60,167 nucleotides of DNA from a virus (taxonomy: Duplodnaviria; Caudoviricetes): IMG/VR virus record IMGVR_UViG_3300017783_000017, positions 1-60,167 of that record, one strand, 5' to 3'. The number at the start of each line of letters is the position of its first letter. Position 1 is the first letter of the stretch. A program made the translations under genes and the position numbers. Below the pieces are notes generated by a model. It was not told where the DNA came from. It saw nothing but the letters and a program-made list of their open reading frames with translations, and made no database searches. Of the stretch, positions 9,446 through 26,034 are shown piece by piece.

Positions 9446-9448
9446 ATA
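9441..9448 (+). promoter_or_regulatory. Late promoter TATAAATA giving a near-leaderless transcript
   Basis: Consensus ends 4 nt before the ATG at 9453, with no SD. Confidence 0.65.
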
Positions 9449-9452
9449 CAAT

Positions 9453-9698: not shown

Positions 9699-9701
9699 TA
9701 A

Positions 9702-10295
9702 TTGGACAGTGTAGCATTTGTACTCGGTAACGGGACAAGTAGAGCATCTTTAGAATTAAAAAATCTTAGGGGAAAAGGAACTATATATGGTTGTAATGCC
9801 ATTTATAGAGATTTTGATCCTGATTATATTATTGCAGTAGACACAAAAATGGTGCTTGAATTAAACAAGCATAATGTACAACACAGAGTATCTACTTGGA
9901 CAAATCAAAATAGATCATACCAAAAACTTGTAGGGTTTAACTTCTTTAATCCATCTAAGGGTTGGAGCAGTGGACCTACTGCCTTATGGAAAGCATGTAA
10001 GGACGAACATAAAATTGTTTATATATTTGGATTTGATTACGTAGGCTTAAATAATAACACATTAGTAAACAATTTATATGCAGGCACACAAAACTATAAG
10101 AAAGAACATGAACGTGCAACCTATCATAATAACTGGTTAAAACAAACAATTATTACAATACAAGCACATCCTGAAATACAATTTTATAGAGTTACAGCAG
10201 AAAACGGCGAATTTATACCAGAGGCTTTCAGTAATTTAAGCAATTTAGACCATATAGGTATGCAAGATTTTAAGGATTTTTATGACATTTTATAA
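9702..10295 (+). CDS. Maf/DUF115- or CstII-like nucleotide-sugar transferase-fold protein
   Basis: TTG start. FVLGNGTSR, GCNA, SSGPTAL, VYIFGFDY motifs resemble sialyltransferase/Maf-type GNGPS...TSG...IYLxGxD motifs. Confidence 0.5.
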   Translation: MDSVAFVLGNGTSRASLELKNLRGKGTIYGCNAIYRDFDPDYIIAVDTKMVLELNKHNVQHRVSTWTNQNRSYQKLVGFNFFNPSKGWSSGPTALWKACKDEHKIVYIFGFDYVGLNNNTLVNNLYAGTQNYKKEHERATYHNNWLKQTIITIQAHPEIQFYRVTAENGEFIPEAFSNLSNLDHIGMQDFKDFYDIL

Positions 10296-12025: not shown

Positions 12026-13123
12026 ATGATAGATGCACTGAAACAACTCTTCGAAAGCGATGCAATAAACGAAGATATCAGAGCTGAAATTGAAGAAGCT
12101 TGGAACGCAAAAGTCAAAGAGAACAAACAGTCAGTGACTGCTGAACTCCGCGAAGAATTTGCTGCCAAGTACGAACATGACAAGCAGGCAATGGTTGAGT
12201 CAATCGACCAAATGCTAAGTGAAAACTTAACTGCTGAGATTGCAGAATTTGCAGAAGACCGCAAAGCACTTTCAGAGCAAAAAGCAAAATATGCTGTTGC
12301 AATGAAAGAAAATGCACATCTCTTAAAAGACTTTGTTGTAAATCAATTACAAAAAGAAGTAAGCGAATTACGTTCAGACAAAGTTAAAATGGCAGAAAGT
12401 TATTCAAAACTTGAAGAGTTCGTTGTAGAAGCTCTTACTTCCGAAATTGCAGAATTTCAAGAAGATAAAAATGATTTGGCTGAAACAAAAGTACGTTTGG
12501 TCAAAGAAGCAAAAGCACATCTTGCTAAAGTTAAAGACAACTTTATCAAGCGTGGTGCTACTGCCGTATCCAATCTTGTTAGTGAAAGTCTTAACAAAGA
12601 AATTCATCAACTTAAAGAAGATATTGATACAGCACGTAAAAATGATTTTGGTCGCAAAATTTTCGAAGCATACGCAGCCGAGTATGGCACTTCTTACTTA
12701 AATGAGAAGAGCGAGACTGCAAAACTTCTAAAAGTAATCGACACAAAAGATAAACAGTTAGCTGAAGCAAAGGCATTCGCTGCCAAAGCTAAAGACATAG
12801 CTGTAAATGTAGACACTTCACGTAAAGCACTTGAAGAGTCTATCAAAAGAGAAAAAATAATTAACGATTTGGTTTCACCGTTAGGTAAAGACCAAAAAGA
12901 AATTATGACAGATTTACTGGAATCAGTACAAACTGCAAGATTAACAAAGCAGTTTGAAAAATATTTACCAACAGTTATTGACGGTAATACTCCAGCAAAG
13001 CAGAAGGCAGTATTAAAAGAAGGCAAAGAAGTAACAGGCAACAGAGAACAACCAACTAACGTTAGTAGTGAAGCAGACGAATCAAATGTCATTGACATCA
13101 AACGTCTTGCTGGTTTAAATTAA
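12026..13123 (+). CDS. gp22: Prohead scaffolding protein (T4 gp22-like)
   Basis: Coiled-coil protein between protease and capsid. GRKIFEA motif and C-terminal KRLAGL. Confidence 0.8.
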   Translation: MIDALKQLFESDAINEDIRAEIEEAWNAKVKENKQSVTAELREEFAAKYEHDKQAMVESIDQMLSENLTAEIAEFAEDRKALSEQKAKYAVAMKENAHLLKDFVVNQLQKEVSELRSDKVKMAESYSKLEEFVVEALTSEIAEFQEDKNDLAETKVRLVKEAKAHLAKVKDNFIKRGATAVSNLVSESLNKEIHQLKEDIDTARKNDFGRKIFEAYAAEYGTSYLNEKSETAKLLKVIDTKDKQLAEAKAFAAKAKDIAVNVDTSRKALEESIKREKIINDLVSPLGKDQKEIMTDLLESVQTARLTKQFEKYLPTVIDGNTPAKQKAVLKEGKEVTGNREQPTNVSSEADESNVIDIKRLAGLN

Positions 13124-13133
13124 GGAGATAATT

Positions 13134-14309
13134 ATGTCAGAACTACTCGAAAGTCGCTGGCAGGATACAAAGACAGCACTTCTTGAAGGCCTTAAGGGCA
13201 ACAAGAAATCAGTTATGGCTGCAACTTTGGAAAATACGAGAGCGTATTTGTCAGAGTCAGCAACAGCTGGTGCTACATCTGCCGGTAATGTCGCAACTCT
13301 TAATAGAGTTATCCTACCAGTCATCAGACGTGTTATGCCAACAGTGATTGCAAATGAACTTGTTGGGGTACAACCAATGACCGGTCCAGTGGGTCAAATC
13401 CACACACTAAGAGTCCGTTATTCGGACACTTACGCAGGCACAGCAGGCGGTTCAACAACCGCAGGCGAAGAAGCTCTTTCACCATTCAAAATAGCTGAAG
13501 GTTATTCAGGTAATGCAAATGGTAAAGCAGATGCTACAGCAACTAAAGAAGGTACAGCTGGAAATCAACTAAGCATCCAGATCCTCAAGCAAACAGTCGA
13601 AGCTAAGACACGTAAATTGTCAGCTCGCTGGACATTTGAGGCGGCTCAGGACGCTCAGTCACAGCACGGTATTGACGTAGAAGCTGAAATCATGGCAGCA
13701 CTTGCACAAGAAATTACTGCTGAAATCGACCAAGAGGTCCTTTCAAGTCTTAATACTCTTGCAGGTACAGCCGCACTTACATACGATCAGGCCGCTGTAT
13801 CAGGTACAGCAACATTCGTTGGTGACGAACACGCCGCATTGGCAGTTCAAATCAATAGAGTTGCAAACTTGATTGCACAGCGTACACGTAGAGGCGCAGG
13901 TAACTGGGCCGTAGTTAGCCCATTTGCGCTAACGATCCTACAAAGTGCAACAACTTCAGCATTTGCAAGAACTACTGAAGGAACTTTTGAAGCTCCAACT
14001 AACACTAAAATGGTTGGTACTTTGAACAACGCTATGAAGGTATATGTTAACACATATGCAGCCGACAGTGCAAACGTACTTGTTGGTTACAAAGGTTCAA
14101 GCGAATCAGATGCGGCAGCGTTTTATTGCCCATACATTCCGCTAATGAGCTCAGGTGTTGTATTAGATCCATCAACATTCGAACCAACAGTATCATTTAT
14201 GACACGTTATGGTTATGTTGAGCTAAACAATACTGCTTCATCGCTTGGTAACGCCGCTGATTACTTGGCTGCCGTTGCAATTACCAATGGTAATGTATCT
14301 TTTAGCTAA
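13134..14309 (+). CDS. gp23: Major capsid protein (T4 gp23-like)
   Basis: RRVMPTVIANELVGVQPMTGPVG, VEAKTRKLSARWT.E.AQD, AEIDQE, FYCPYIPL, TRYG motifs. Confidence 0.97.
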   Translation: MSELLESRWQDTKTALLEGLKGNKKSVMAATLENTRAYLSESATAGATSAGNVATLNRVILPVIRRVMPTVIANELVGVQPMTGPVGQIHTLRVRYSDTYAGTAGGSTTAGEEALSPFKIAEGYSGNANGKADATATKEGTAGNQLSIQILKQTVEAKTRKLSARWTFEAAQDAQSQHGIDVEAEIMAALAQEITAEIDQEVLSSLNTLAGTAALTYDQAAVSGTATFVGDEHAALAVQINRVANLIAQRTRRGAGNWAVVSPFALTILQSATTSAFARTTEGTFEAPTNTKMVGTLNNAMKVYVNTYAADSANVLVGYKGSSESDAAAFYCPYIPLMSSGVVLDPSTFEPTVSFMTRYGYVELNNTASSLGNAADYLAAVAITNGNVSFS

Positions 14310-14332
14310 GATATAAAGCATAGCAAAATTGG

Positions 14333-14360
14333 AAATAGGCCCTTCGGGGCCTATTTTTTT
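14333..14360 (+). terminator. Rho-independent terminator after the capsid gene
   Basis: AAATAGGCCC-TTCG-GGGCCTATTT followed by a T run. Confidence 0.92.
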
Positions 14361-14373
14361 GACTAAATATTAT

Positions 14374-14419
14374 TACGTTCATCCTACGGGACGGAAGTAG
14401 CATTAGCGAAGGAACGCAC
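14374..14419 (+). ncRNA. Glutamine riboswitch (glnA RNA motif), compact form
   Basis: P1 CGTTC 14376-80/GAACG 14412-16; P2 TCC-TACG-GGA; conserved CGGAAGTA E-loop strand; P3 GC-ATTA-GC; GAAGGAACGC end. Confidence 0.8.
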
Positions 14420-14444
14420 TTTAACTTTAACGAGGAGAAGTGTA

Positions 14445-14543
14445 ATGGACAACTATACGCTTTGGTGCTTTCAACAGCTTATCAAACTGCACCATAAGAA
14501 AAAAGTTGACTTTTTATTGCAAAAAGTGCAAAAAAGTGGTTGA
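14445..14543 (+). CDS. 32-aa basic peptide MDNYTLWCFQQLIKLHHKKKVDFLLQKVQKSG downstream of the riboswitch
   Basis: GAGGAG SD at 14432-14437, ATG at 14445, TGA at 14541-14543. Too short for the ORF track. Confidence 0.55.
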   Translation: MDNYTLWCFQQLIKLHHKKKVDFLLQKVQKSG

Positions 14544-14567
14544 CTTTTATAATATAGATGCTATATT
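14540..14567 (+). promoter_or_regulatory. Sigma70-type (early) promoter
   Basis: TTGACT 14540-45, 16-nt spacer, extended -10 TGc-TATATT 14559-67, and upstream A tracts. Confidence 0.65.
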
Positions 14568-14573
14568 AGTAAC

Positions 14574-14792
14574 ATAAGCAATAAAAGAGTAATTAACTTT
14601 TATTTTTTAGTGCATCGAAGAGGCTCTTACCAGAGGGTTGAAGATGACAGCTTAGGGGTGGTACCCAGGCATGGTTGCAGAAATGCGTTGTGTCACATCG
14701 CTCTACCGAGCGGAAGTTGGTTCCCGGGATTCAGACAGGTATCTGTGTCGAAGGGTTGTAGGTGAAACCGAGTCCTACCTAAAATTGCTTAT
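14574..14792 (+). ncRNA. ~220-nt structured RNA, manA-motif-like
   Basis: Closing helix ATAAGCAAT 14574-82/ATTGCTTAT 14784-92; two TACC-loop hairpins and two GGTA loops; GCA-GAAA-TGC GNRA hairpin; GTAGG/CCTAC. GC-rich with no ORF. The GGTGGT...ATCG..TACC..CGG pattern recalls the manA motif. Confidence 0.7.
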
Positions 14793-14806
14793 TCTTAAAC
14801 AGGCGC

Positions 14807-15070
14807 TTAGGCGTCTGTTTTCTTATTAAAAATTCCAAACTTTTTACATTTAGCAATAAACGTTGTACGTTTGATTCCTAAAGATTTGCTTGCATGTGTT
14901 TGATTGTAGTTGTGTTCAATTAAAGCATCTTTAATTTTATCTATTATAAAATCTTCTGTTTCTTTATCTAAATTTTTTGTAGGTACGTTCTGGTCATCTT
15001 TGATATTATGATGTCGACTCATTTCCTCAAAAGCTTCGAACATTACATCCTGTTCTGACTTTAGCACCAT
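14807..15070 (-). CDS. Stand-alone Fis-family (HTH_8) DNA-binding protein
   Basis: IKDALIEHNYNQTHASKSLGIKRTTFIAKCKKFGI matches the C-terminal HTH of Fis and NtrC/FleQ-type activators. No AAA+ domain. Confidence 0.8.
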   Translation of the reverse strand: MVLKSEQDVMFEAFEEMSRHHNIKDDQNVPTKNLDKETEDFIIDKIKDALIEHNYNQTHASKSLGIKRTTFIAKCKKFGIFNKKTDA

Positions 15071-15093
15071 TTAGATTCCTGACCTTATTAAGA

Positions 15094-15101
15094 TATTTAT
15101 G
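15094..15101 (-). promoter_or_regulatory. Late promoter CATAAATA for the Fis-like gene
   Basis: TATTTATG on the + strand, about 24 nt upstream of the ATG at 15070. Confidence 0.6.
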
Positions 15102-15146
15102 CAGTGTTTGCAAAACAATTACAATGATCGGAAACATATTACATAT

Positions 15147-15164
15147 GTGTTAAAATTTTAACAC
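15147..15164. promoter_or_regulatory. Perfect 18-bp palindrome, candidate CRP/Clr-family or Fis-type operator
   Basis: GTGTTAAAATTTTAACAC = TGTTA-N6-TAACA / TGTT-N8-AACA, 5 nt upstream of the csgF late promoter. Confidence 0.55.
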
Positions 15165-15169
15165 CAAGC

Positions 15170-15196
15170 GATAAATACAAGTGGAGGGCTTCCTTT
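15170..15196 (+). promoter_or_regulatory. Late promoter and leader of the csgF operon (copy 1 of the 19-bp element)
   Basis: GATAAATA followed by CAAGTGGAGGGCTTCCTTT and ATG. 15171-15189 is identical to the reverse complement of 24455-24473. Confidence 0.75.
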
Positions 15197-15685
15197 ATGA
15201 AGATAAGAAATATACATATCATCGGTCTGACTTTAGCACTTACATTTGCTATACCCAATGTTGCCGCAAGTGACTTGACTTGGAGTTTTAAATCTCCAGC
15301 ATTTCATTATGGTAACGGCTACAGTACTCACGTACTAAGTGTAGAACAGCTACAGTTTAACCGCAGAAAAGAAATTGCAGATGCACAGAAAGCAGAAGCG
15401 GCTCGCTTAGAGCGTGAATTAGAAAATACTACACTTAATAAATTTATTAAGAACGTTGAATCAAGAATATATGCACAACTATCAAAACAAATGGTTGATA
15501 GTATGTTTGCTGATTGTGATGCCACAACAGGCACATGCCCAACATCAGGAACAGCAGAAATCGAAGGTTCAACTATATCATGGGTTAAAGATGCTATAAC
15601 TGGAGAAATCACTTTGACTGTTGTTGAAGAAGATGGCTCTACTACTGAAATATCGATACCAGGATCAGGAGAGTTTAATTTTTAG
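15197..15685 (+). CDS. csgF: Curli assembly protein CsgF-like
   Basis: Signal peptide, then SDLTWSFKSPAFHYGNG (cf. CsgF GTMTFQFRNPNFGG). FIKNVESRIYAQLS and a C-terminal G.TTEI.IP. Immediately upstream of csgG. Confidence 0.85.
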   Translation: MKIRNIHIIGLTLALTFAIPNVAASDLTWSFKSPAFHYGNGYSTHVLSVEQLQFNRRKEIADAQKAEAARLERELENTTLNKFIKNVESRIYAQLSKQMVDSMFADCDATTGTCPTSGTAEIEGSTISWVKDAITGEITLTVVEEDGSTTEISIPGSGEFNF

Positions 15686-15686
15686 T

Positions 15687-16490
15687 ATGCTGAAAACTGT
15701 TTGTGCCATTCTTACCCTTGCATTCCTAACAGGCTGTGCAGGCATGCAAAGCATGGAAAAATTAATAGATTCACAGGACAGTCCTGGATTACAGGTGTCA
15801 CCTATTAAAGATAGAATGATGAATGTTCGTCCTATAGATGGACCAAAAATTACAATAGCAGTATACCAATTTGCAGATAAAACAGGACAACGTAAACCTG
15901 CAGATAATATTGCTAATTTAAGTAGCGCAGTAACACAAGGAAGTGAAGTTTGGGTTATTAAAGCTCTACAAGAAGTAGGAAACGGAACGTGGTTTGAAGT
16001 TGTTGAAAGAGTGGGCATGGACCACTTGATTAAAGAACGTCAGTTGATACGTAACACACGTGACGTGTATGAAAAAGATTTACCTAATGGTCCAACGCCA
16101 TTAAAACCTATGTTGTTTGCGGGCTTATTGCTTGAAGGCGGCATTGTAGGATACGACAGCAATGTTGCAGTCGGAGGAATTGGAGCAAGGTATTTAGGAA
16201 TAGGAGCACAAACAGAGTACAGAATAGACACTGTTACTATTGTGATGCGCCTTGTTAGTGTTAGCACCGGTAAGGTGTTGATGAGCATAGCAACCGAAAA
16301 AACGATTGCAAGCTACAGGTCCGGAGCGGACATCTTCAAGTTTTTGGATTTGGGGACTAAATTAGTGGAGTCGGAAGCCGGCTTCAGTGTTAATGAACCA
16401 GTTAATTATGCTGTGAGGGCAGCCATTGAACAAGGCATAATAGAGCTGGTAAACGAAGGAGTTAATAAAGGACTCTGGAAGTTTAAATAA
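15687..16490 (+). CDS. csgG: Curli secretion channel lipoprotein CsgG
   Basis: Probable start is ATG 15687, giving lipobox LTGC. AVYQFADKTGQRKP, SSAVTQG, WF.VVER.G...L.KERQLIR, EGGIVGYDSN, GG.GARYLGIG motifs. Confidence 0.93.
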   Translation: MLKTVCAILTLAFLTGCAGMQSMEKLIDSQDSPGLQVSPIKDRMMNVRPIDGPKITIAVYQFADKTGQRKPADNIANLSSAVTQGSEVWVIKALQEVGNGTWFEVVERVGMDHLIKERQLIRNTRDVYEKDLPNGPTPLKPMLFAGLLLEGGIVGYDSNVAVGGIGARYLGIGAQTEYRIDTVTIVMRLVSVSTGKVLMSIATEKTIASYRSGADIFKFLDLGTKLVESEAGFSVNEPVNYAVRAAIEQGIIELVNEGVNKGLWKFK

Positions 16491-16503
16491 GAGGGTAACT
16501 ATT

Positions 16504-17250
16504 ATGAAAAGTATAAAATTGTACTTAACAGCTATACTCTGGTTTACTGTATCTACTGCTCTGGCAAACGATATTTACATCGAGCAGGTCGGAGACACAT
16601 TAGACTTAGACATAGTACAAGATGGTGCGAATAATGTTATAGGCACAGCAACAACTGCGGCTATTTTAGAGGGCGACGGTATGACGTTCGATATTACACA
16701 GACAGGAAGTGCAAACGTTATTGCGGCAACTATCAAAGGAGTGAACTACGAAGGAACATGGGATTTTACTGGTGATCGTAACACAGTAGACATGTTATGT
16801 TCAAGCGCAAGTTCGGGTAATTGTGATGACGTTACGTTGAATGTCACTGTAGATGGTGATGACAACGAATTCAAGTTTTATGTAGGGCAATCTGCAGATG
16901 CAGAAGATTTACTTGCGGCATTCACTGTTGATGGAGACGGAAACGTTTTTGACGTTGACGTTGACGGAACAGATGCAAACATAACTGTCACTGTAGATAA
17001 CAGTGCATCGTTAGCATCTAACCAAGTCCAATCAGCTACCGATAATAATCTTTCAACAAGTGTTGCTGGAGGAAATATTATTGATTTAGATATAGACGGT
17101 AATGGAGATACAAACGGGCATGAAATTATCTTAGATATTACAGGCGGCGGGTCATCTTACACCATTAACCAAAGTGGCGTTAACGACAACAAAGTTGATG
17201 CAACTTTTTCAGGTGATGGTCAAACTGTCAATATAACGCAGAGTGACTAA
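16504..17250 (+). CDS. Secreted curlin-like beta-solenoid repeat protein
   Basis: Signal peptide ending ALA. Repeats such as IYIEQVGDTLDLDIVQDGANN, ITQTGSAN, V.VDGDDN, INQSGVNDN. Directly after csgG. Confidence 0.7.
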   Translation: MKSIKLYLTAILWFTVSTALANDIYIEQVGDTLDLDIVQDGANNVIGTATTAAILEGDGMTFDITQTGSANVIAATIKGVNYEGTWDFTGDRNTVDMLCSSASSGNCDDVTLNVTVDGDDNEFKFYVGQSADAEDLLAAFTVDGDGNVFDVDVDGTDANITVTVDNSASLASNQVQSATDNNLSTSVAGGNIIDLDIDGNGDTNGHEIILDITGGGSSYTINQSGVNDNKVDATFSGDGQTVNITQSD

Positions 17251-18385
17251 AATGTTAAGATTAATTCTAACATTCGCATTTTTTCTTTCGAGCACCTCAA
17301 CCGTTTATGCTAATTTGTCAGCAGGCAATATTGGCGAAATGAAAGGCTCTGGCGTGCTTGAAAGGCGAAATGATGTAATTACAGGTGGCGCAGGCGTAAG
17401 TGTGCAAAGTATGGACACTGCGGTTACAGCTAACGGTAAAATGAGAATTGATTTTATTGACGAAACACGAGTAGATTTAACAGAACATTCAAGACTTTTG
17501 ATTGACGAGTTTGTCTATGACCCTGCAAACGATATAGGCAAACTTTCAATTAAGGCCTCCTTAGGAGGTGTGAGATATGCTTCAGGCCAAATAGCAAAAA
17601 AATATAGACAAAACGTACAAATTAAAACACCATCTGCTACAATCGGAGTTAGGGGAACCGATTTTATATTAGTAGTAGACGAGGCGGGCGGCACGATGGT
17701 AACACTTTTACCCTCTTGTGATGTAGATGGGTATTGCTACACAGGAGAAATAGAAGTGGAAACCGATGCTGGCTTTGTAATTATGAACCAAGCCTTCCAA
17801 TCCACCATGGTTACACACGGCATGCGTCCCCCGACTCCCCCTTTAATTTTAGATATAGGCGAATCAGAAATCAACCAACTATTAATATTACGTAAGAAAA
17901 AACCTTATGAAGAAGAGGAAGATGAAATACGTAAAAAAACAAAAAAGATGTTTGATTTTCTTGATATAGATTTTTTAGAATTTGACGAACTTAATAATGA
18001 TGCACTAACATCAGATGTGCAAAATATATGGGCTACAGAGTTAGATGATAGCGATTACTATCTATCTGATTTGTTAGTTGATATGTTAGATGTTTTAAAT
18101 TTAGCATTAGCTAACTTATTTAGAGATCAACTTAAACTGGAAAACCAAGAAATATTTAGACAAAAACAAATTACAGGATATGACGAAACAACACGTATAT
18201 TCCTTGATTACGAAGAACCTACATATCATATAAGAAGAAAAGATATTTCGTTAAACAACAATATAGATATAAAATTAAATGATCAATACGGTTATACTCT
18301 AAACATAGAACAGCAAGACGAAGCAGTGTATGAATATCTACTTGGTGTAGGTGCTAATAGTATAGATATAAAGCAGAGACAATAA
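17243..18385 (+). CDS. FecR-domain periplasmic protein
   Basis: Signal peptide. D...T......I.F.D.T.V.L.E.S.L.ID and IKTPSATIGVRGTDF motifs of the FecR domain. Confidence 0.85.
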   Translation: MTKMLRLILTFAFFLSSTSTVYANLSAGNIGEMKGSGVLERRNDVITGGAGVSVQSMDTAVTANGKMRIDFIDETRVDLTEHSRLLIDEFVYDPANDIGKLSIKASLGGVRYASGQIAKKYRQNVQIKTPSATIGVRGTDFILVVDEAGGTMVTLLPSCDVDGYCYTGEIEVETDAGFVIMNQAFQSTMVTHGMRPPTPPLILDIGESEINQLLILRKKKPYEEEEDEIRKKTKKMFDFLDIDFLEFDELNNDALTSDVQNIWATELDDSDYYLSDLLVDMLDVLNLALANLFRDQLKLENQEIFRQKQITGYDETTRIFLDYEEPTYHIRRKDISLNNNIDIKLNDQYGYTLNIEQQDEAVYEYLLGVGANSIDIKQRQ

Positions 18386-19839
18386 TGAAACTAACAGGAA
18401 CACATTTAGGAATCTTAGTTATAGCATTATACTTTGTTTTTCAGGCTTGTCCTGTGCAAGCTAATGATGCCTTTATATATTATAGTAACGGTAGCCCAGG
18501 CACCACCGCTCAATACAATCATTTAAAAAGCGAACTTGAAGATTTAGGATTTACTGTGACAGGAAGTACAAGTGGCACAGTAAGTTCAAGTGCAATATCA
18601 GGCCAAGATTTAGTTATTGATATGGCAGGAACTTCAAACTGTGGTAGTACTTGTAAGACAGCGTATGACAACTATGTAAATGGTGGTGGTAAATTACTCA
18701 TAGTAGGAGTCAACGGTGCAACCAACAGAAATGGCAATATAGAATCACTGATTGAAAATAAAATGGGTGTGGGATCAATGACATGGTATTCCCAAAGTTG
18801 TAGCGGCTGTTTTGCTTCAGTTGCAGTAGGCGATTATGCTTCAAGTACATCAAGTGAAAACACATTGCCAGGACCAGACAAATTGTTTACAGCAAGTGGC
18901 GGTACAGCAATGGCCAAAAACAGCACAGGTAATAATTATATGAGTTGGTATAAATGGGGCTATGGTTCCAATGGTGGTACCGTAATGGTCACTACTGGTT
19001 ATGGACAGTTTTTATCATATAATTCTCTTGTTGATAATCAAAATGCTTTCTTGTTAAGAGCATTGCAAGAAGAAGGATTAGTTGCAACAACAGTGACTTA
19101 CACATCAAGTATAAGCAATGCACAGACCACACAAATAACAACATCAAGAGCAGTAACACATAGTGGTAATGGTATATACATCGAGCAAGTGGGCAATGAC
19201 AACGAGTTAACTATCGACCAAGAAGGCGATAACAATCTTATCGCAGGCACTGGTAGTACAACTACTAATTATGAAAATGCAGAAATTACTGGAAGTAACA
19301 ATGTTACTACGCTAAATCAAAATGGTACTAACAATGTAATGTTGTTTGATATCACAGGCAACTATAACGATACAACTGTTGACCAAGGCGGTACTACAGG
19401 TTCAGACGATAACAGAGCCGAGTTTAACATCAATGGCGGCTTTAATACAACAAGTATTACGCAAAATCATGCCAATGGTATTGGAACTAATGGACACTTT
19501 GTTGCATTAGATCTTGACGGTGACGACAACAATGTTTTGACAAGTCAACTTAATGATGGAGATAAGAAAGCATTTCTAAGTGTACAAGGTGACGACAATG
19601 ATATAGACCTATACCAACAAGGCTCAGGCTCGCACTATGCAGAAATATCTGTAGGCAATGATCAAACAATTGATGTAACACAAGACGGAAGTGGCAATCA
19701 CAATGCCAGTATTTCAATGTCAGGTTATACATCAGGTTTGGATCTTACACAAGATAGTTCAACAGGAAAAACTTATTCTATAATGCAAAATTGCTTAAAC
19801 GCAAATGGTTGTGGCACAACTACTATTACACAAAACTGA
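18385..19839 (+). CDS. Secreted protein with an N-terminal alpha/beta (GATase-like) domain and C-terminal curlin repeats
   Basis: Signal peptide ending VQA. LKSELEDLGFTV...YVNGGGKLLIVG. C-terminal IEQVGNDN, IDQEGDNN, LNQNGTNN, QQGSGSH.A, TQDGSGNH.A repeats. Confidence 0.7.
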   Translation: MKLTGTHLGILVIALYFVFQACPVQANDAFIYYSNGSPGTTAQYNHLKSELEDLGFTVTGSTSGTVSSSAISGQDLVIDMAGTSNCGSTCKTAYDNYVNGGGKLLIVGVNGATNRNGNIESLIENKMGVGSMTWYSQSCSGCFASVAVGDYASSTSSENTLPGPDKLFTASGGTAMAKNSTGNNYMSWYKWGYGSNGGTVMVTTGYGQFLSYNSLVDNQNAFLLRALQEEGLVATTVTYTSSISNAQTTQITTSRAVTHSGNGIYIEQVGNDNELTIDQEGDNNLIAGTGSTTTNYENAEITGSNNVTTLNQNGTNNVMLFDITGNYNDTTVDQGGTTGSDDNRAEFNINGGFNTTSITQNHANGIGTNGHFVALDLDGDDNNVLTSQLNDGDKKAFLSVQGDDNDIDLYQQGSGSHYAEISVGNDQTIDVTQDGSGNHNASISMSGYTSGLDLTQDSSTGKTYSIMQNCLNANGCGTTTITQN

Positions 19840-19857
19840 AAGGGAAGGATTAAAAAA

Positions 19858-20133
19858 ATGGAAATGGGCTTTAACGAGATAGCAAAAACTTGTCTCGATT
19901 TAGAAGGGTATGATAGAAACTTACCTGTTGAAGAAAGATTTGAAGAATTTGATTTTAGAAAGGCCGCAGGGTGTGCATCTAAGGGTAGAGTTGCACTATA
20001 CATAAAAGATAATTATGATACTGCGGCTTTCTTAAAAGCAAATCCTCATTTCAGATATCCAGGCGGATCAAATGGAAACATAGACCCGTGCTGGGGCAAG
20101 AACAAAAGATATCTTGCAAACGGAGGATGTTAA
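19858..20133 (+). CDS. Hypothetical protein (4 Cys)
   Basis: 91-aa ORF with purine-rich SD, in operon orientation. Confidence 0.55.
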   Translation: MEMGFNEIAKTCLDLEGYDRNLPVEERFEEFDFRKAAGCASKGRVALYIKDNYDTAAFLKANPHFRYPGGSNGNIDPCWGKNKRYLANGGC

Positions 20134-20134
20134 A

Positions 20135-20350
20135 ATGAGTAACTTTAATCAAGATCATATGTTTACAAAGCTACAAAAAATGTATTTTTTAGGATGTGGT
20201 ATATTAGTAGCATTATGTATGACTTACATTACATTTTTATATTTTGAGTATAGAGTAGTAAATGCAACATGGGAAACTACATTTGTTTCGCCTGCGGCAT
20301 TTTGGGACGAAGTACCGGACTGGAAATGGGAACCTATATTTAAGGGGTAA
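20135..20350 (+). CDS. Small single-pass membrane protein
   Basis: GGAGG SD before ATG 20135. Hydrophobic segment YFLGCGILVALCMTYITFLYF. Confidence 0.6.
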   Translation: MSNFNQDHMFTKLQKMYFLGCGILVALCMTYITFLYFEYRVVNATWETTFVSPAAFWDEVPDWKWEPIFKG

Positions 20351-20358
20351 ATAAACAC

Positions 20359-20616
20359 ATGTTCGGATGGTTTCAAAAGGAGCACACAGATGCAGAACAA
20401 CAAGAGGATTGGATTCCTAAGCGAGTTGCAGAGCTTAAATCCAGAATCGCCGCTCTTGAAAGCCGCATCGGAAGGCATAAAGAATCCAATCAAAGTACAC
20501 AAGCACACTCCGAGCATGTGGTGGATACGCGAACAGAGAAAACTGAATCAGCCCAAGCCAGCAAAAAAGATCTTGAAATGATGGCTCTAAAAGCCAAACT
20601 TATGGGTAAAAGATAA
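20359..20616 (+). CDS. Small coiled-coil hypothetical protein
   Basis: 85 aa, AAGGGG SD, RVAELKSRIAALESRI heptads. Confidence 0.55.
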   Translation: MFGWFQKEHTDAEQQEDWIPKRVAELKSRIAALESRIGRHKESNQSTQAHSEHVVDTRTEKTESAQASKKDLEMMALKAKLMGKR

Positions 20617-20619
20617 ATA
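20612..20619 (+). promoter_or_regulatory. Late promoter GATAAATA
   Basis: Consensus followed by a ~70-nt leader containing GAGGGC and a CACC-TTTC-GGTG hairpin. Confidence 0.6.
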
Positions 20620-20688
20620 CACTTGTAAGCGAAGCGTGAGGGCGTTTCAGAAAGTCACCTTTCGGTGCATTCACAGAAAGCAATACCC

Positions 20689-21171
20689 ATGATCGATCCC
20701 GTATCGGCTATAGGAATGGCAACAGCCGCATATCGCGGAATTAAGTCAGCAATAGACACTGGGCGAGAACTGCACGACATGGCAGGGACTCTATCTCAGT
20801 GGGCAGGTGCAATGTCTGACTTAGACTTTTCACACAAACAAGCCGAAAATCCACCAATGTTCAAAAAACTGTTTGGCGCAAGCCAAATAGAACAAAATGC
20901 TCTGGAAATTTGGGGGCATAAACAAAAAGCAAAAGAAATGCGCGATGAAATGAAAACACACATAAGTTTTTATTATGGTCCAAGTGCCTGGGATGAAATT
21001 GTACGCATCGAAGGCGAAATGCGCAAGAAACGTGCGGCAGAAGTTTATAAAGCTGAAGAACGTAAACAATTAATCTTAGAATGGGTAGTCGGAATAACTT
21101 TAGCGGTAGTAGGCCTATCTGTATTAGCTTTTGTTTTTTGGTTAATAGGAGTTGGCACAGGAAAATGGTAG
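20689..21171 (+). CDS. Membrane-anchored coiled-coil protein with C-terminal TM
   Basis: Likely start MIDPVSAIGMA at 20689. C-terminal WVVGITLAVVGLSVLAFVFWLI. Confidence 0.65.
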   Translation: MIDPVSAIGMATAAYRGIKSAIDTGRELHDMAGTLSQWAGAMSDLDFSHKQAENPPMFKKLFGASQIEQNALEIWGHKQKAKEMRDEMKTHISFYYGPSAWDEIVRIEGEMRKKRAAEVYKAEERKQLILEWVVGITLAVVGLSVLAFVFWLIGVGTGKW

Positions 21172-21172
21172 T

Positions 21173-21361
21173 ATGTGGATATTAATTTACTTGGCATTAT
21201 CTGCAGGCGGAGCCATGCAAAATTATCATATAGGAACATTTACTACACAAGAAGAATGTGCCGCAGAACTTAGCAAAGCACATGTGTTAGTAAAATCAAA
21301 AGGCCAGTCTATAGATTGCATCGAAATTGTAATTGACGAGACTTACATAAAACTTAACTAA
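21173..21361 (+). CDS. Small exported protein with a Cys pair
   Basis: MWILIYLAL hydrophobic start, F.TQEEC...C pattern. Confidence 0.55.
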   Translation: MWILIYLALSAGGAMQNYHIGTFTTQEECAAELSKAHVLVKSKGQSIDCIEIVIDETYIKLN

Positions 21362-21369
21362 ATAATTGT

Positions 21370-21573
21370 ATGTTATTAGAGTTGGCTATGGCTGGCTTCT
21401 TAACCTGCAACTTATACAAGCAAGAAATTGTAGGTGAAGATAGGCAGTGTTATTATAAATGCACAGACACTTCAAAGGATTACGCATCTACTTTGAAACA
21501 GTACCAATGCCCTAAACGACTACAAGTAGACAGACCTCCTTTAAAATTTAAAGACCGTATCAAAGACAAATAA
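21370..21573 (+). CDS. Small Cys-rich exported protein
   Basis: 67 aa with TC.L...RQCYYKC...QCPK. Confidence 0.55.
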   Translation: MLLELAMAGFLTCNLYKQEIVGEDRQCYYKCTDTSKDYASTLKQYQCPKRLQVDRPPLKFKDRIKDK

Positions 21574-21576
21574 ATA
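21569..21576 (+). promoter_or_regulatory. Late promoter AATAAATA giving a near-leaderless cyclase mRNA
   Basis: Consensus ends 4 nt before ATG 21581, with no SD. Same geometry as 9441. Confidence 0.6.
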
Positions 21577-21580
21577 CAGT

Positions 21581-23632
21581 ATGACCAAGTATATTACACA
21601 TTGGGCTGTGGCCTTAGTTACGGCTTTTATTATGATAGGTTTCCACTACAATGATAGCTCTGTAGTGCAAACGGCTCGGCTGAAGTCATTTGATATACTT
21701 CAACAAACAGATCAGCCAACATTATCCCAAGATATTGCTGTCGTCACTATCGACGAAAGCGCCATTGAAAAGTACGGACAATGGCCTTGGAAGCGTGATG
21801 TTCTTGCAGATATAATCTGGAAGCTTCGTGAAGCAGGTGCTGGCATTATTGTAATGCCTATGTTATTTTCAGAGCCAGATAGACTTGGCGGTGATATAGC
21901 ATTAGCCGAAGCACTTGTAGATAACGGCGTAGTGATTGCTCAAACAGGATCTACACAAGCCAATCGCAACTCGGTCCCGCGAGGAATTGCGAAGATAGGA
22001 GACCCACTGCCATACATGTTTGAATGGCCGGGGATGCTGGGACCTATTCCATTGTTAGGAGAGAATGCAGACGGTGTAGGAGTGTTGAACACTTTCCCAG
22101 AGATCGATGGCGTTGTACGTAGAGTACCTCTTCTTATGCGTATCGGGGATGATACGTATCCTGCTTTAGCAGTGGAAGTAATCAGAGTAGCAACAGGAAA
22201 TCCAAGCTATCAAGTGAAAGCTAATCAAGGTGGGATTGAAAAAGTAAGAGTTCCGGGGTTTCCAATAATAACCACAGATCCAAATGGACAAATTTGGTTA
22301 CGTTGGAATAAAGATTTTGAAACTATAAGTGTTGCTGACAATGATTTAAGTACAGTAGCAGGTAAAACTGTTATTGTAGGAGTAACTGCTGAAGGAATTG
22401 GCGGAATGATAGCATCACCAACTGGTCCAAAATATAATTACATTCCTTCAGCAGTTATGCTCCAGACTGTAATAGATGGAGATCAGATACAACGTCCATA
22501 CTGGGCGTTTTTGGCTGAACTACTTACTACAGCTATTTTAGGCCTTTTATTAGTATTATTAGCTCGTTTTACACCATATTACATAGTTGGTGGGTCTATA
22601 CTACTCTTTAGCGGAAGTCTTGCTTACGGAGCGTTATACGCTTGGCAAGAGTACCTTTATTTGCTTGATGTTACTATGCCGGTGATTACAGTTCTAATCG
22701 TCGGATTACATGCAGTGTTTAATAGATTTGTAAGTGAATACACACAGAAACAAGCAATTAAGAAACAGTTTGCAGGATATGCAAGTCCAACAGTAGTACG
22801 TTTACTACAAGAAAATCCTTCATTAATTAAAGAAGGAATGAAAAAAGAAGTTAGTATACTGTTTAGTGATTTGCGTGGCTTTACACCATTAGGCGAATCG
22901 TTCGGTGATGATGTTAAAGGCTTAACTAAAATTATGAATGGCTATATGGATGCTATTACGCAACCTATATTAGATTCAGACGGTATGGTTATTAAGTATA
23001 TCGGCGATGCAAGTATGCACATACACAATGCGCCAATAGACGATCCAGAACATCCTAAAACAGCAATACAATGTGGATTGAATATGTTAAGTGCAGTGGA
23101 GAAATTTAATGATAAAATTACAGCAGAAGGAAGGCCGCCCGTTGGAATGGGTGCCGGCATCAATACCGGCCTTGGCTATCTTGGAGAAATGGGTAGCACA
23201 GCAAGACATTCGTACGATGTGTTGGGAGACGCAGTATCAACAGCCGCAAGAATTGAAAGCAAGTGTAAAGAATACGGATGTCTCCTCTTAGTAGGCGAAA
23301 GCACATACAAAGAAACTAAAGATGATTTCTTTTATCTAAAAGTAGATGACTTACAAGTAAAAGGTAAAAGTGTAGGATTAAGCATTTATACTGTGTTAGA
23401 TTTAGAAGGAACACACGCTCAAAAGAAAAGTCAAGAAATGCACGAGCGTATGCACGATGCATACAAAGAACAAAAGTTTGATGAAGCTATTTACATATGC
23501 GAAAGACTAAAAAGGCACTTTAATGCAAAAATGCAAGGCTATTATGATATGTGGATTGAACGCTGTGAATACATGAAAACACAAGACCTACCAAAAGATT
23601 GGAATGGTGTGTTTATAGCAACTTCTAAATAA
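21581..23632 (+). CDS. CHASE2-domain class III adenylate/guanylate cyclase
   Basis: N-terminal TM; CHASE2 (IDE.AI..YGQWPW.R, DGVVRRVPL); three TMs; cyclase motifs FSDLRGFT, KYIGDA, GINTG, YDVLGDAVSTAARIE, VKGK; C-terminal W.GV. Confidence 0.92.
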   Translation: MTKYITHWAVALVTAFIMIGFHYNDSSVVQTARLKSFDILQQTDQPTLSQDIAVVTIDESAIEKYGQWPWKRDVLADIIWKLREAGAGIIVMPMLFSEPDRLGGDIALAEALVDNGVVIAQTGSTQANRNSVPRGIAKIGDPLPYMFEWPGMLGPIPLLGENADGVGVLNTFPEIDGVVRRVPLLMRIGDDTYPALAVEVIRVATGNPSYQVKANQGGIEKVRVPGFPIITTDPNGQIWLRWNKDFETISVADNDLSTVAGKTVIVGVTAEGIGGMIASPTGPKYNYIPSAVMLQTVIDGDQIQRPYWAFLAELLTTAILGLLLVLLARFTPYYIVGGSILLFSGSLAYGALYAWQEYLYLLDVTMPVITVLIVGLHAVFNRFVSEYTQKQAIKKQFAGYASPTVVRLLQENPSLIKEGMKKEVSILFSDLRGFTPLGESFGDDVKGLTKIMNGYMDAITQPILDSDGMVIKYIGDASMHIHNAPIDDPEHPKTAIQCGLNMLSAVEKFNDKITAEGRPPVGMGAGINTGLGYLGEMGSTARHSYDVLGDAVSTAARIESKCKEYGCLLLVGESTYKETKDDFFYLKVDDLQVKGKSVGLSIYTVLDLEGTHAQKKSQEMHERMHDAYKEQKFDEAIYICERLKRHFNAKMQGYYDMWIERCEYMKTQDLPKDWNGVFIATSK

Positions 23633-23953
23633 TTATTTTTTACCAGTGCTGTCAAATTTTTGATTTGTTACATCACTGTATTTGTTGACAATTTCTTCAA
23701 GTTCAGCTCTACGCTCTTTATCAAGTTTTGCTTCGTTTTCTAAAGCCATAGTAAGTTTTGTATTCAAGCGTATCATGTCGTTGTCTAACATGCGAACTCT
23801 GTCAACCAGTTTTATTAGTGTAGCCATAGCATCACCAACGACAGGTTGAATTTCGGTCGTAACCCATTTCCAAATATAATATACAAAGTAACCTAACCCA
23901 GTAGCCGCGACTATTGGAAAACCATAATCACTTACTACTTGACTTAGATCCAT
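23633..23953 (-). CDS. GFPI-motif (YvrJ-like) single-TM coiled-coil protein
   Basis: YGFPIVAATGLGYFVYYIW, then RVRMLDNDMIRL. Paralog of 24168-24446. Confidence 0.7.
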   Translation of the reverse strand: MDLSQVVSDYGFPIVAATGLGYFVYYIWKWVTTEIQPVVGDAMATLIKLVDRVRMLDNDMIRLNTKLTMALENEAKLDKERRAELEEIVNKYSDVTNQKFDSTGKK

Positions 23954-24167
23954 ATTTTTCCTTTTCGTATTTCATTAATAACGTGTTCACCTCGTCTGAC
24001 TTAACAAGCCATCCGTTTTCGTTAACAATAAAGACATCGCCTGGTTTATATAACCAATGAGATTTTGGCGTACCGTCTTTTTGAACACCCATTACTTCTC
24101 CGGGCCAATCACCTTTGACAGTAAAATTATCTCCAGCTTGTTCTACAGTATAGTCTAACCAAATCAC
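23928..24167 (-). CDS. Hypothetical small beta protein
   Basis: 79 aa between the two GFPI genes. LYKPGDVF.V motif. Confidence 0.6.
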   Translation of the reverse strand: MIWLDYTVEQAGDNFTVKGDWPGEVMGVQKDGTPKSHWLYKPGDVFIVNENGWLVKSDEVNTLLMKYEKEKYGSKSSSK

Positions 24168-24446
24168 TTAATCTCTCCTTGCATCTTCTTTGCCTTCATT
24201 TGCCGCAATCCTATCTACATTAGGTTTTACCTTTAGTGCATGGCTCATAAGCGCATCGATCTTCACAAGATCATTATTCATAGTTTGCACACGATTGTCA
24301 AGACCACTTGTAATATTTTTTAATCCCTTGACAGAACCTGTAACACCTGCTAATATAAATTTTAATGTAGTAAAAACAAATAAACCGGCTGCCAATGCTC
24401 CTGCTATCGGAAACCCTAAATCTGCTACTAAACTTAAAAAGTCCAT
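24168..24446 (-). CDS. GFPI-motif (YvrJ-like) single-TM coiled-coil protein
   Basis: LGFPIAGALAAGLFVF, then NRVQTMNNDLVKID. Confidence 0.7.
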   Translation of the reverse strand: MDFLSLVADLGFPIAGALAAGLFVFTTLKFILAGVTGSVKGLKNITSGLDNRVQTMNNDLVKIDALMSHALKVKPNVDRIAANEGKEDARRD

Positions 24447-24474
24447 AATGGATTGCCCTCCACTTGTATTTATA
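24447..24474 (-). promoter_or_regulatory. Late promoter and leader (copy 2 of the 19-bp element)
   Basis: The minus strand reads TATAAATACAAGTGGAGGGCAATCCATT then ATG. Confidence 0.75.
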
Positions 24475-24490
24475 ACAAAATCTTACGTTT

Positions 24491-24592
24491 GATAAATACA
24501 TATGTCAGATAGTGTGCCGCAAGGCGGACTTATGCTGTACCCACAGCGTAGCTCATAGAACGGGCATAGGACTACTATTATAGGAGAAAACA
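24491..24592 (+). promoter_or_regulatory. Late promoter plus multi-hairpin structured 5' leader
   Basis: GATAAATA 24491-98; ATAGT 24509-13/ACTAT 24574-78; GCC-GCAA-GGC; TATGCTGT-ACCC-ACAGCGTA; GCTC/GGGC. Confidence 0.6.
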
Positions 24593-25042
24593 ATGGGAAG
24601 ACCACTTAATAAAAGGTTGATGGGAACGCCGACAGCAGCCGGCAACGAAATCAAAGTAAACTTTCATAACGGCACAGCAGTTAAAGAAGGTTATATCGTA
24701 AAGCAAAAAGGCTCAAAGAAATTTGTATGTGAAGAAATTGGAACAGCAGGCGAATTTACTTGTACACTAACAACTGGTAAATTACCAGCGGCATTAGCGG
24801 CAGGCGAAATGGCTATTTCATTCAAAATGGACGACAGTGAAACTTACACAGTAAGTAAAATTGCTGGACGTAAAGCAACTTTATCTGCTCCAAGTGGAAC
24901 AGGTGCAAACGCTTATGACGGACTTAGTGTAGCGTGGAACTTTAGCACAAGTACTTCAGATGGTGCGGCACAAGTTGAAGAAGCTGGTGACGACAACACA
25001 TTAGTAGGTACTGATGACGACGACTTCACAGAAGACGCATAA
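24593..25042 (+). CDS. Conserved hypothetical virion-associated protein
   Basis: 149 aa, strong AGGAG SD, MGRPLNK...GYIVKQKGSKKF motif. First gene of the structural block. Confidence 0.65.
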   Translation: MGRPLNKRLMGTPTAAGNEIKVNFHNGTAVKEGYIVKQKGSKKFVCEEIGTAGEFTCTLTTGKLPAALAAGEMAISFKMDDSETYTVSKIAGRKATLSAPSGTGANAYDGLSVAWNFSTSTSDGAAQVEEAGDDNTLVGTDDDDFTEDA

Positions 25043-25059
25043 AGCATAAGGATTGAATC

Positions 25060-26034
25060 TTGAAATACGTTAAAGTATCCGATAATAGTTACAAACTTTC
25101 AGTTACTGACGGTGGAACTATCTATCTTTACACCGGAGCAGAAACTGGTGAGGTTCGTATATCTGGTGACTTAATTGTTCAAGGTAATACAACTACAGTA
25201 CAAAGTGAAGAACTTACTGTTAAGGATAATATTATTATTCTTAACCAAGGTGAAACTGGTGCAGGCATCACATTAGATGAAGCAGGCATTAGAATTGACC
25301 GTGGTACTTTACAAGATGCTTATATTGTATTAGATGAGGACATCACTAATTCACGAACAGGATTACCTGGCGTATTTGCTTTTAAATTTAATGACGGATC
25401 AGCGGCAGCGATAAGAACAAATGCTATCAACACCGCTGGTTCCGATTTACATTTAATTAATTCAGGAACAGGTGTTATTACAGTTACTGGTACAACTGAT
25501 TATGAAAATCAAGTAACAGACGACGATGACATCACAAATAAAAAATATGTTGATGATGCTATTAGCACAAGTTTTGCTACTGTATTTTTAAAACAGATTG
25601 GTGACGGCGTATCAAGCCCGTCAAGCATTAGAATCTTTGATAGTGAACCATCACCAGATGGTAGCGGTGTTGATCATAGTAAAATAACTTTTACAATTGA
25701 CGGCGTAATTCATGCAGAGATGTACGATGATAGATTAGAGTATGGTAATTTAAGATTTACTGATACAATAATTGAAACAATCTCAAGTAACGATGACTTA
25801 GTTTTAAGAGCACCTGGTACAGGCGCTGTTAGAATTGATGATACTTTACATATTAACAGTACACCCGGCGACGACGATGTAGCAATAGAACCAACACAGC
25901 CAATAGACGGATCTAAGATTTATATTAGTACACAGTCTACTGGTAAGTCTGGTATTTACTTCGTAAACGACGAAGCAAACAGAGATGAATTGGTAAGTAA
26001 GAATAGAGCATTACTATTTGGAATGCTTTTTTAA
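25060..26034 (+). CDS. Virion structural / tail-fibre-like protein
   Basis: G.L.VQG.TTTV.S..L.VKDNII.LN and NKKYVD fibre motifs. Confidence 0.65.
   Translation: MKYVKVSDNSYKLSVTDGGTIYLYTGAETGEVRISGDLIVQGNTTTVQSEELTVKDNIIILNQGETGAGITLDEAGIRIDRGTLQDAYIVLDEDITNSRTGLPGVFAFKFNDGSAAAIRTNAINTAGSDLHLINSGTGVITVTGTTDYENQVTDDDDITNKKYVDDAISTSFATVFLKQIGDGVSSPSSIRIFDSEPSPDGSGVDHSKITFTIDGVIHAEMYDDRLEYGNLRFTDTIIETISSNDDLVLRAPGTGAVRIDDTLHINSTPGDDDVAIEPTQPIDGSKIYISTQSTGKSGIYFVNDEANRDELVSKNRALLFGMLF

Follow-up and report, generated by a model that had tools for sequence, protein, structure and literature searches.

The locus considered here raises the question of why a perfect 19-base-pair (bp) sequence stands, in opposite orientations, at the two ends of a curli gene module carried by a tailed virus (Duplodnaviria; Caudoviricetes). 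The stretch that we analyzed, referred to as the window, is the entire IMG/VR record IMGVR_UViG_3300017783_000017, with 60167 bases and a CheckV completeness of 22 (about 22% of the genome). In this module, the left copy of the repeat would start a csgF-csgG-...-cyclase unit and the right copy a G92-p79-G106 unit, and these two units converge at 23632/23633. The late promoter ATAAATACA, three bases, GGAGGGC, 7-8 further bases and the ATG would together make up one cassette, present in two opposite copies. The explanation of the two repeats as a duplicated promoter-leader cassette is, taken as a whole, probably the right one, and we read the pair itself, with moderate confidence, as a cassette that was duplicated or converted. 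What we describe is a neat, if ordinary, case of regulatory duplication, neither a flip-switch nor a transposon end.

The inverted repeat and its late-promoter motif

We observed that ATAAATACAAGTGGAGGGC lies at 15171-15189 on the plus strand and its exact reverse complement at 24455-24473 on the minus strand, so that the 19-bp inverted repeat described in the original prediction is an exact match on both strands. The 60-kb record has one forward and one reverse copy and no others. When up to three mismatches were allowed, the same two matches remained the only ones in the window, against 0.02 expected, and two or more matches were found in 0 of 100 shuffles. The pair is also the longest perfect inverted repeat within 13000-26000. 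Both leaders run on into TCC.TTATG, as had been read from the sequence before, the left copy reaching the csgF ATG at 15197 through GGGC-T-TCC-T-TTATG and the right copy reaching the G92 ATG at 24446-24444 through GGGC-AA-TCC-A-TTATG. The two cassettes are laid out as follows.

15171..15199, plus strand: left promoter-leader cassette, composed of ATAAATACA (late promoter), AGT, GGAGGGC, TTCCTTT and the csgF ATG; its first 19 bases are the repeat.
24444..24473, minus strand: right promoter-leader cassette, composed of ATAAATACA, AGT, GGAGGGC, AATCCATT and the G92 ATG; its tail AATCCATTATG is csgF-type.

Within the 19-mer, nine bases belong to the generic promoter ATAAATACA and 7-8 to (T)GGAGGGC, a motif that recurs in the module, whereas 2-3 bases, plus the spacing, have no evident functional reason. 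The remainder after the promoter, AGTGGAGGGC, includes GGAGG at Shine-Dalgarno distance from the ATG, and GGAGGGC may act in translation initiation.

Judged by its letters, the 5' part of the 19-mer is a T4-type late-promoter motif. In the window we counted 12 copies of the motif ATAAATAC, where 5.2 +/- 2.2 were expected, and 0 of 100 shuffles reached 12. Eleven copies are on the plus strand and one, the right-hand repeat, is on the minus strand, each facing a gene; the bias towards the plus strand parallels that of the genes, nearly all of which lie on it. All 12 sites are outside same-strand open reading frames (ORFs) of at least 100 amino acids (aa), an ORF beginning with ATG follows 3-114 nucleotides (nt) downstream of 11 of them and one beginning with TTG follows the twelfth, and 10 of the 12 extend to ATAAATACA. 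The genes downstream include a baseplate wedge gene and large ORFs of the tail/baseplate region, and ATAAATA also stands ahead of the other two minus-strand units, 3405-4274 and the helix-turn-helix (HTH) gene 14807-15070. These 12 gene-facing sites sustain the earlier proposal of a late-type promoter in the 5' part of the repeat. A scan of the region for sigma-70-type promoters found 32 against 33.4 expected, not above shuffles, and no terminator-like site was detected at either copy of the cassette.

In T4, late promoters have no -35 element; they consist of TATAAATA at about -10, which gp55 recognizes together with gp33 and the gp45 clamp, and late transcription starts about 6 nt past ATAAATA. 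The window sites resemble T4-type late promoters in their core (T)ATAAATA, in their position ahead of structural genes on the coding strand, in the lack of enrichment of sigma-70-type sites and in leaders that are short or nearly absent; they differ in the consensus ATAAATAC(A), in which the first-position T is found in some copies only. By analogy with T4-type phages, transcription from the cassettes would be late, would start at a similar distance and may depend on a gp55-like factor. None of the 20 public runs carrying the stretch is on record as RNA. The T4 late motif TATAAAT served as a search motif in the study of phage Melnitz (PMC9004378), and the paper on phage PA5oct gives the motifs TATAATA and TTGAC (PMC7318152). 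The major head protein of the window is closest to those of PA5oct-like jumbo phages (66-70% identity), which fits the completeness estimate of about 22% and means that the module is not restricted to pelagimyophages.

At some late promoters only 3-4 bases separate the motif from the ATG (ATAAATACagtATG), as seen at 9442-9455 and 21570-21583 in the window, at 13183 and 7679 in the related locus L021 and at 6999 in the related locus L028. Such spacing would yield leaderless or nearly leaderless mRNAs, and the cyclase gene keeps this form in L021 and L028. At 4176 on the minus strand of L021 the late-promoter motif stands directly before a tRNA gene belonging to a cluster of seven tRNA genes (1906-4163), which adjoins the related module there.

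Module layouts and the likeness of the two leaders

More than 400 IMG/VR contigs carry relatives of G92, and more than 580 carry relatives of CsgG. We mapped the module proteins on 157 retained loci, and counted layouts in the 132 of these with both CsgF and CsgG, redundant loci included. A tandem layout, with G92-(p79)-G106 directly upstream of csgF on the same strand, was noticed in 64 loci, and the convergent layout of the window in 46; other orders accounted for 4 loci, and G92 was not reached in 18. Among same-strand modules, TAAATA stands upstream of G92 in 36 of 44 and upstream of csgF in 3 of 44. Among convergent modules (n = 32), 28 have it ahead of G92, 29 ahead of csgF and 25 ahead of both genes. 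Since the tandem form is a single-promoter operon in so many relatives, the csgF block and the G92 block make up one system, in agreement with the original prediction, which had joined the csgF block and the "GFPI" block on other grounds. The convergent layout separates these blocks, and each then needs a promoter of its own. In a CsgG tree (FastTree), tandem and convergent modules are interleaved, with at least six changes among 74 typed rows; the module blocks have repeatedly been rearranged or exchanged.

Most likely, G92 acquired its csgF-type leader as a copy, through recombination or gene conversion between cassettes. Short-homology exchange, of the kind that shuffles blocks in T4-type phages, would be the copying route, and the identity of the 19-mers would then reflect shared function (late promoter, ribosome-binding motif and short leader) together with recent common descent. 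A counterpart of the window G92 leader was found in the csgF leader of the related locus L050, with which it shares 13 + 5 + 11 identical bases around a 41-nt insertion, a score that 0 of 300 shuffles equalled. The tail AATCCATTATG and the head ATAAATACAAGTG of the window G92 leader are both present in that L050 csgF leader, and the tail is identical. TCC-type tails after GGAGGGC were observed in 4 of 9 csgF leaders versus 1 of 9 G92 leaders, the latter being the window's own. Additionally, in L021 and L028 the two leaders within a genome share bases that differ between the genomes, as ATAAATA is followed by TTA in L021 and by CTTA in L028; the other late promoters of L021 are without the shared TTA. 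The similarity that continues to the ATG, the csgF-type leader of G92 and the sharing within L021 and L028 point to common descent.

Several observations weigh against this explanation. Within-genome similarity of the leaders exceeds between-genome similarity only slightly, with 6.0 versus 5.31 of 16 positions (permutation p = 0.035, n = 25 convergent genomes), and it is strong only in the window and L021, at 13 of 16 positions each. The promoter and the GGAGGGC consensus account for 16-17 of the 19 bases, so that the identity could arise by constraint alone, and exact identity taken by itself is weak evidence of copying. The cassette as such is not conserved, the exact 19-mer being found in no other IMG/VR contig by a scan that may have omitted the window's own record. 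Moreover, analogy with T4-type phages is the basis for promoter activity, the late timing and the start site.

The GAGGGC leader signature and rival explanations of the repeat

The part of the leader that follows the promoter turned out to be a property of the module. GAGGGC occurs at five sites in the window when both strands are counted, all of them between 15184 and 24460, inside the module, and at three of them ATAAATAC stands no more than 25 nt upstream (promoters at 15171, 20613 and 24473). These were the only such sites, and the statement that no other late promoter has the extension, apart from GAGGGC after 20612, was correct. The internal site is the following.

20613..20648, plus strand: internal late promoter ATAAATAC followed by the box GAAGCGTGAGGGCGTTTC (20631-20648), which may form a 6-bp hairpin with loop UGAGGG; upstream of a 168-aa ORF.

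We then counted GAGGGC within 40 nt after [AT]TAAATA in 94 non-redundant related IMG/VR loci, comparing module spans with their flanks. It follows 41 of 387 such sites in modules versus 2 of 562 in flanks, while four permuted-hexamer controls gave 0-3 matches in all and plain AGGAG showed little difference (49 of 387 in modules versus 44 of 562 in flanks). A module-specific leader signature, GAGGGC after the late promoter, therefore exists. The genes behind it are G92 (12), CsgF (11), p248 (3), p168 (2), p91 (2), p69 (1) and unidentified ORFs (12), and the motif is mostly 1-10 nt ahead of the ATG. Of the 32 convergent modules, 7 have promoter and GAGGGC together ahead of csgF as well as of G92. 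We also recorded 37 distinct promoter-proximal TGAGGG sites, about 20 of which lie within a conserved box, AGCGTGAGGGCGTT, that could form a hairpin of 5-6 bp with the loop UGAGGG and whose pairs are nearly invariant. Almost no covariation was detected in this box, positions 1-5 pairing in 20-25 of the 37 instances, and the hairpin is thereby neither shown nor excluded.

It is conceivable, though on balance unlikely, that GAGGGC, alone or in the AGCGTGAGGGCGTT box, binds a module-specific factor, which could be an RNA-binding protein, a nuclease or a specialized ribosome component. Such a dedicated regulon would co-regulate csgF, G92, p168 and others post-transcriptionally, and the identity of the 19-mers would result from selection for the same operator; this is compatible with the duplicated cassette, to which it adds a factor. 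The enrichment of about 25-fold in modules over flanks speaks for it, but no candidate factor emerged, and in only 7 of the 32 convergent modules does the signature stand at both ends. The motif precedes at least six gene families, in modules with CsgG 49-100% identical to that of the window, and 37 promoter-proximal sites with a box in about 20 of them would suit a binding site; the near absence of covariation in the box does not favor it. The usual anti-Shine-Dalgarno of the 16S 3' end is CCUCC, and pairing with it leaves the trailing GC of GAGGGC unexplained, yet the motif is mostly placed at ordinary Shine-Dalgarno distance, where nothing more than a strong ribosome-binding site is needed.

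A dedicated factor acting through DNA was considered as well, as the original prediction had the two operons co-regulated through the 19-mer. The module has one DNA-binding gene, HTH_8, and a palindrome stands beside the left cassette.

14807..15070, minus strand: HTH_8 gene of 87 aa, Fis-family (PF02954, E 2.4e-06), divergent from csgF, with ATAAATAT ahead of it at 15101-15094 (minus).
15147..15164: perfect 18-bp palindrome GTGTTAAAATTTTAACAC, 6 nt upstream of the left cassette and the only copy in the window; candidate operator of HTH_8.

We found the palindrome, in the form GTGT[AT]A-N4-10-T[AT]ACAC, no more than 110 nt ahead of csgF in 12 of the 32 convergent modules and in 0 of the 44 same-strand modules, and it accompanies the HTH gene in 10 of the 11 loci with that gene. 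Upstream of G92 it was detected in 0 of 76 related modules. A dedicated transcription factor, if there is any, therefore acts at csgF only, and the two promoters are not equivalent upstream of the repeat, which does not bear out a common factor working through the 19-mer. HTH_8 and the palindrome are, by their sequence and position, a candidate dedicated regulator for the csgF side only. In the related loci L106, L109, L156, L157, L064 and L066, the HTH gene lies on the opposite strand between csgG and the next gene.

In its widest form, the proposal would be that the curli/G92 module has its own cis-code, in which GAGGGC, serving as the ribosome-binding site or standing in the AGCGTGAGGGCGTT box shortly behind a late promoter, marks the module mRNAs for a dedicated post-transcriptional controller and the cassettes provide homology for block inversion or swapping; we consider this a doubtful proposition. 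If it were true, a horizontally mobile accessory module would keep a private regulon inside the late programme of very different phages.

A further reading, which we judge rather improbable, is that two independent instances of late promoter, leader and GGAGGGC agree by chance, with no copying. As ATAAATACA is common to 10 of the 12 ATAAATAC sites, and TGGAGGGC or GGAGGGC recurs 5-6 nt past TAAATA in csgF and G92 leaders of many relatives, about 2-3 unconstrained bases would have to coincide, with a chance of 1/16 to 1/64. Against it, the similarity extends beyond the 19-mer into TCC.TTATG, and the tail of the window G92 leader is identical to the L050 csgF tail and unlike those of other G92 leaders. 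L021 and L028, again, show the same within-genome likeness with different bases.

The leaders had also been proposed to fold a mini-hairpin over the ribosome-binding site, as GGA-loop-TCC or GUGGAGG/CCUUUAU, which would throttle both first genes alike; this we find very unlikely. The left 37 nt fold at -5.5 kcal/mol and the right copy has a 6-bp stem, but 37 and 7 of 200 shuffles fold equally well, and relative to shuffles the leaders score z = -1.0 and -2.0 over 37-38 nt and z = +0.45 and -1.1 over 60 nt. The pairing partners are not the same in the two predicted stems, and the 5' arm AGUG would be outside the RNA if transcription started about 6 nt after ATAAATA as in T4. TCC follows GGAGGGC in 4 of 9 csgF leaders but is missing from 8 of 9 G92 leaders, being kept in that of the window alone, and the proposed hairpin is not supported.

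The variable island, the module and what they mean

The weakest explanation takes the repeats for sites at which an invertible segment recombines, or for the terminal inverted repeats of a mobile cassette carrying the module. It is extremely improbable, because both repeats are fully explained as promoters, neither recombinase family searched for has a match in the 60-kb record, the contigs of four runs are colinear, the island that holds the module ends elsewhere (about 14364-14369 and 24488-24491) and the inverted isomer is seen in 0 of 76 modules. What had favored it is that a perfect 19-bp inverted repeat brackets 9.3 kb, that the module lies in a variable island absent or differently filled in relatives, that layouts among relatives differ by block inversions, and that a Fis-family HTH gene adjoins the left repeat.

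The record, about 22% of the genome, has no match to resolvase/invertase (PF00239) or tyrosine recombinase (PF00589), for which controls were positive in 12 and 14 of 14 genomes. The stretch is present nearly identically in 18 public runs from 14 studies, and in 4 runs, each from a different study, contigs span both repeats in the orientation of the window with 0-2 differences; this is the only orientation seen in them, contigs being unable to show rare isomers. No strand change at the repeats appears in the 15 listed joints or in the 4 of table 5c, with 9 joints not shown and rare variants dropped from contigs. The inverted isomer, which would place the palindrome ahead of G92, is the one found in 0 of 76 related modules. 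No target-site duplication is present at the repeats, as their flanks (...CCAAGCG and AACAAAA...) differ, and among the module proteins there is no transposase match beyond a weak HTH match to phrog_296 (E 0.0032). The island itself can be given as follows.

14370..24491: variable island, with the major head gene on one side and the tail/baseplate genes on the other; it includes a glutamine riboswitch and a manA RNA, the HTH gene and the complete module.

Joints from about 14364-14369 to 24488-24491 are seen in related contigs, although the sides of these joints are only 32-37 nt long, which makes them a hint and not a proof. In 3 of the 4 runs, contigs of related phages pass straight from the end of the head-gene region to the promoter at 24492 and so lack about 10.1 kb; in one of them, 27 other bases stand in between. 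Contigs that join across these 10.1 kb indicate that the whole island is present or absent among close relatives. Many related contigs lose their likeness just before 24492. As the left end of the island is about 800 nt outside the left repeat, the island is not bounded by the repeats. We also considered a one-step inversion and rejected it: neither inversion from 19-mer to 19-mer nor any other single inversion turns the tandem form (major head gene, G92 and csgF all on the plus strand) into the layout of the window, and we claim no path between them.

With reference to known systems, the invertible segments of Hin, Gin and Cin, which are assisted by Fis, are similar in having a short inverted repeat around a multi-kb segment, with a Fis-family HTH gene nearby in the window, but the window record is without an invertase gene, is seen in one orientation and has repeats with ordinary promoter function. 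A parallel may also be drawn with the PeSL cassettes of T4-type phages, in which sigma-70-like early promoters are joined to terminator stem-loops (Arbiol et al. 2010, PMC2839356). These too are short repeated regulatory cassettes that bound accessory blocks in variable regions, and recombination is held to shuffle the blocks (PMC2839356). The window cassette differs in being a late promoter with a ribosome-binding leader and no terminator, and recombination between its copies is our inference.

The genes of the module and the first feature on its right side are listed below.

15197..20616, plus strand: first part of the plus-strand unit, with CsgF, CsgG, a 248-aa protein, a FecR-domain protein, a 484-aa curlin-repeat protein and three small ORFs.
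15197-15685, plus strand: CsgF (PF10614, E 2.2e-10).
Ending at 16490, plus strand: CsgG (PF03783, E 5.6e-49).
21570..23632, plus strand: gene of a CHASE2 adenylate/guanylate cyclase with its late promoter ATAAATAC; 3 nt between promoter and ATG; its stop abuts that of G106.
23633..24446, minus strand: minus-strand unit with G92 (24168-24446), a 79-aa ORF and G106 (23633-23953).
24492..24595, plus strand: late promoter ATAAATAC of the backbone with the freshwater-2 RNA leader of ORF 24593-25042; divergent from the right cassette at a distance of 18 nt and outside the module.

No terminator-like site or spacer was detected at the junction of the stops at 23632/23633. With the cyclase and G106 stops abutting (23630-23635), late transcription started at the two cassettes would be expected to run head-on or to produce antisense RNA. 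Within the cyclase coding region there is a perfect 16-bp inverted repeat (22383-22398 and 22442-22457) with a 43-nt spacer.

G92 and G106 are paralogues with 28% identity and belong to phrog_18771, a PHROG without known function. G106 has a weak match to holins (E 0.0021), and the nearest named Atlas cluster of G92 is YvrJ at 0.88, a lead only. The module closest to that of the window (CsgG 84%) is in L046, where the gene running divergently from G92 (9412-9987, minus) has matches in tail-lysozyme/endolysin families. A link of these small proteins to lysis is possible.

Structured RNAs stand on both sides of the module, with the glutamine riboswitch and the manA RNA to its left and the freshwater-2 RNA to its right. 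The riboswitch aptamer (14374-14420, plus, 49.6 bits) is followed by the manA RNA (14580-14788, plus, 59.8 bits) and then by a terminator-like hairpin (14797-14820). As there is no plausible plus-strand ORF between the head gene and csgF, the riboswitch would control a non-coding RNA, an arrangement that recalls the riboswitch-tmRNA pair reported for phage Melnitz (PMC9004378). No tRNA or tmRNA was found in the window, and neither the riboswitch nor the manA RNA was detected in the five related loci scanned. The freshwater-2 RNA (24513-24595, plus) lies between the late promoter and the first tail-side gene, and relatives with the same backbone have it in L069 (9929-10015) and L078 (19476-19549); being kept in them, it belongs to the backbone and not to the module.

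Our data on the surroundings suggest that the module travels. Nine loci with head genes like those of the window (major head protein 75-77% identical) carry a tandem module with CsgG only 45-50% identical, the freshwater-2 RNA following the module in two of them, while the modules nearest to that of the window (CsgG 75-85%) have unrelated genes around them, including oxidoreductases, a methyltransferase and a lysozyme. The same head genes with a distant module, and a near module with unrelated neighbors, indicate by comparison that the module moves between phage backbones, and not as a unit bounded by the 19-mers. The 'phages' collection gave no match to near-identical module DNA.

The curli operon of Pelagibacter phage HTVC008M, which is annotated as Kyanoviridae and for which T4-like gene clusters are noted in its record, is of the tandem form, with TATAAATA, a dioxygenase gene, two 93-aa proteins, CsgF and CsgG, and onward to the cyclase; it is headed by one promoter, TATAAATA-N5-ATG. 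G92 and G106 are 49% and 44% identical to the two 93-aa proteins, and the CsgG proteins are 52% identical. "Two hypothetical proteins" of equal size are part of the pelagimyophage curli operon (Zaragoza-Solas et al., PMC7029224), and the gene content of such an operon has also been given for phage Melnitz of Methylophilales (PMC9004378). The window module is like these operons in its CsgF, CsgG, curlin-like, FecR-domain and cyclase genes and in its two proteins of about 93 aa. It is unlike that of HTVC008M, where all genes are co-directional behind one promoter, in that the G92 block is inverted, stands at the far end and has its own promoter-leader. It is unlike the pelagimyophage operon in adding the HTH_8 gene with its palindrome and in lying between head and tail genes rather than in the pelagimyophage region. 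Late-promoter prediction failed in pelagimyophages (PMC7029224), and promoters of this type and GAGGGC leaders are not among what that source describes in the parts bearing on the operon.

Late promoters of the T4 type, curli operons in phages (PMC7029224, PMC9004378) and shuffling by way of short regulatory cassettes (PMC2839356) are all of known kinds. In the literature searched, four things appear to be undescribed, namely a map of the late promoters in the module, a GAGGGC signature confined to the module, the unit of HTH gene and palindrome in the convergent form and the recurrent tandem/convergent rearrangement, and no prior description of GAGGGC late-promoter leaders, or of curli with TATAAATA, was found in that literature by title.

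Among abundant marine phages the curli operon is a known puzzle, and this study places its two small "GFPI" proteins within the curli system and offers a testable transcription map, with late promoters at 15171, 20613, 21570 and 24473. It also documents recurrent block shuffling at promoter cassettes in a module common to hundreds of uncultured phages. The two regulatory handles obtained, the GAGGGC leader and the pair of HTH_8 and palindrome at csgF, could show when and why the module is expressed.

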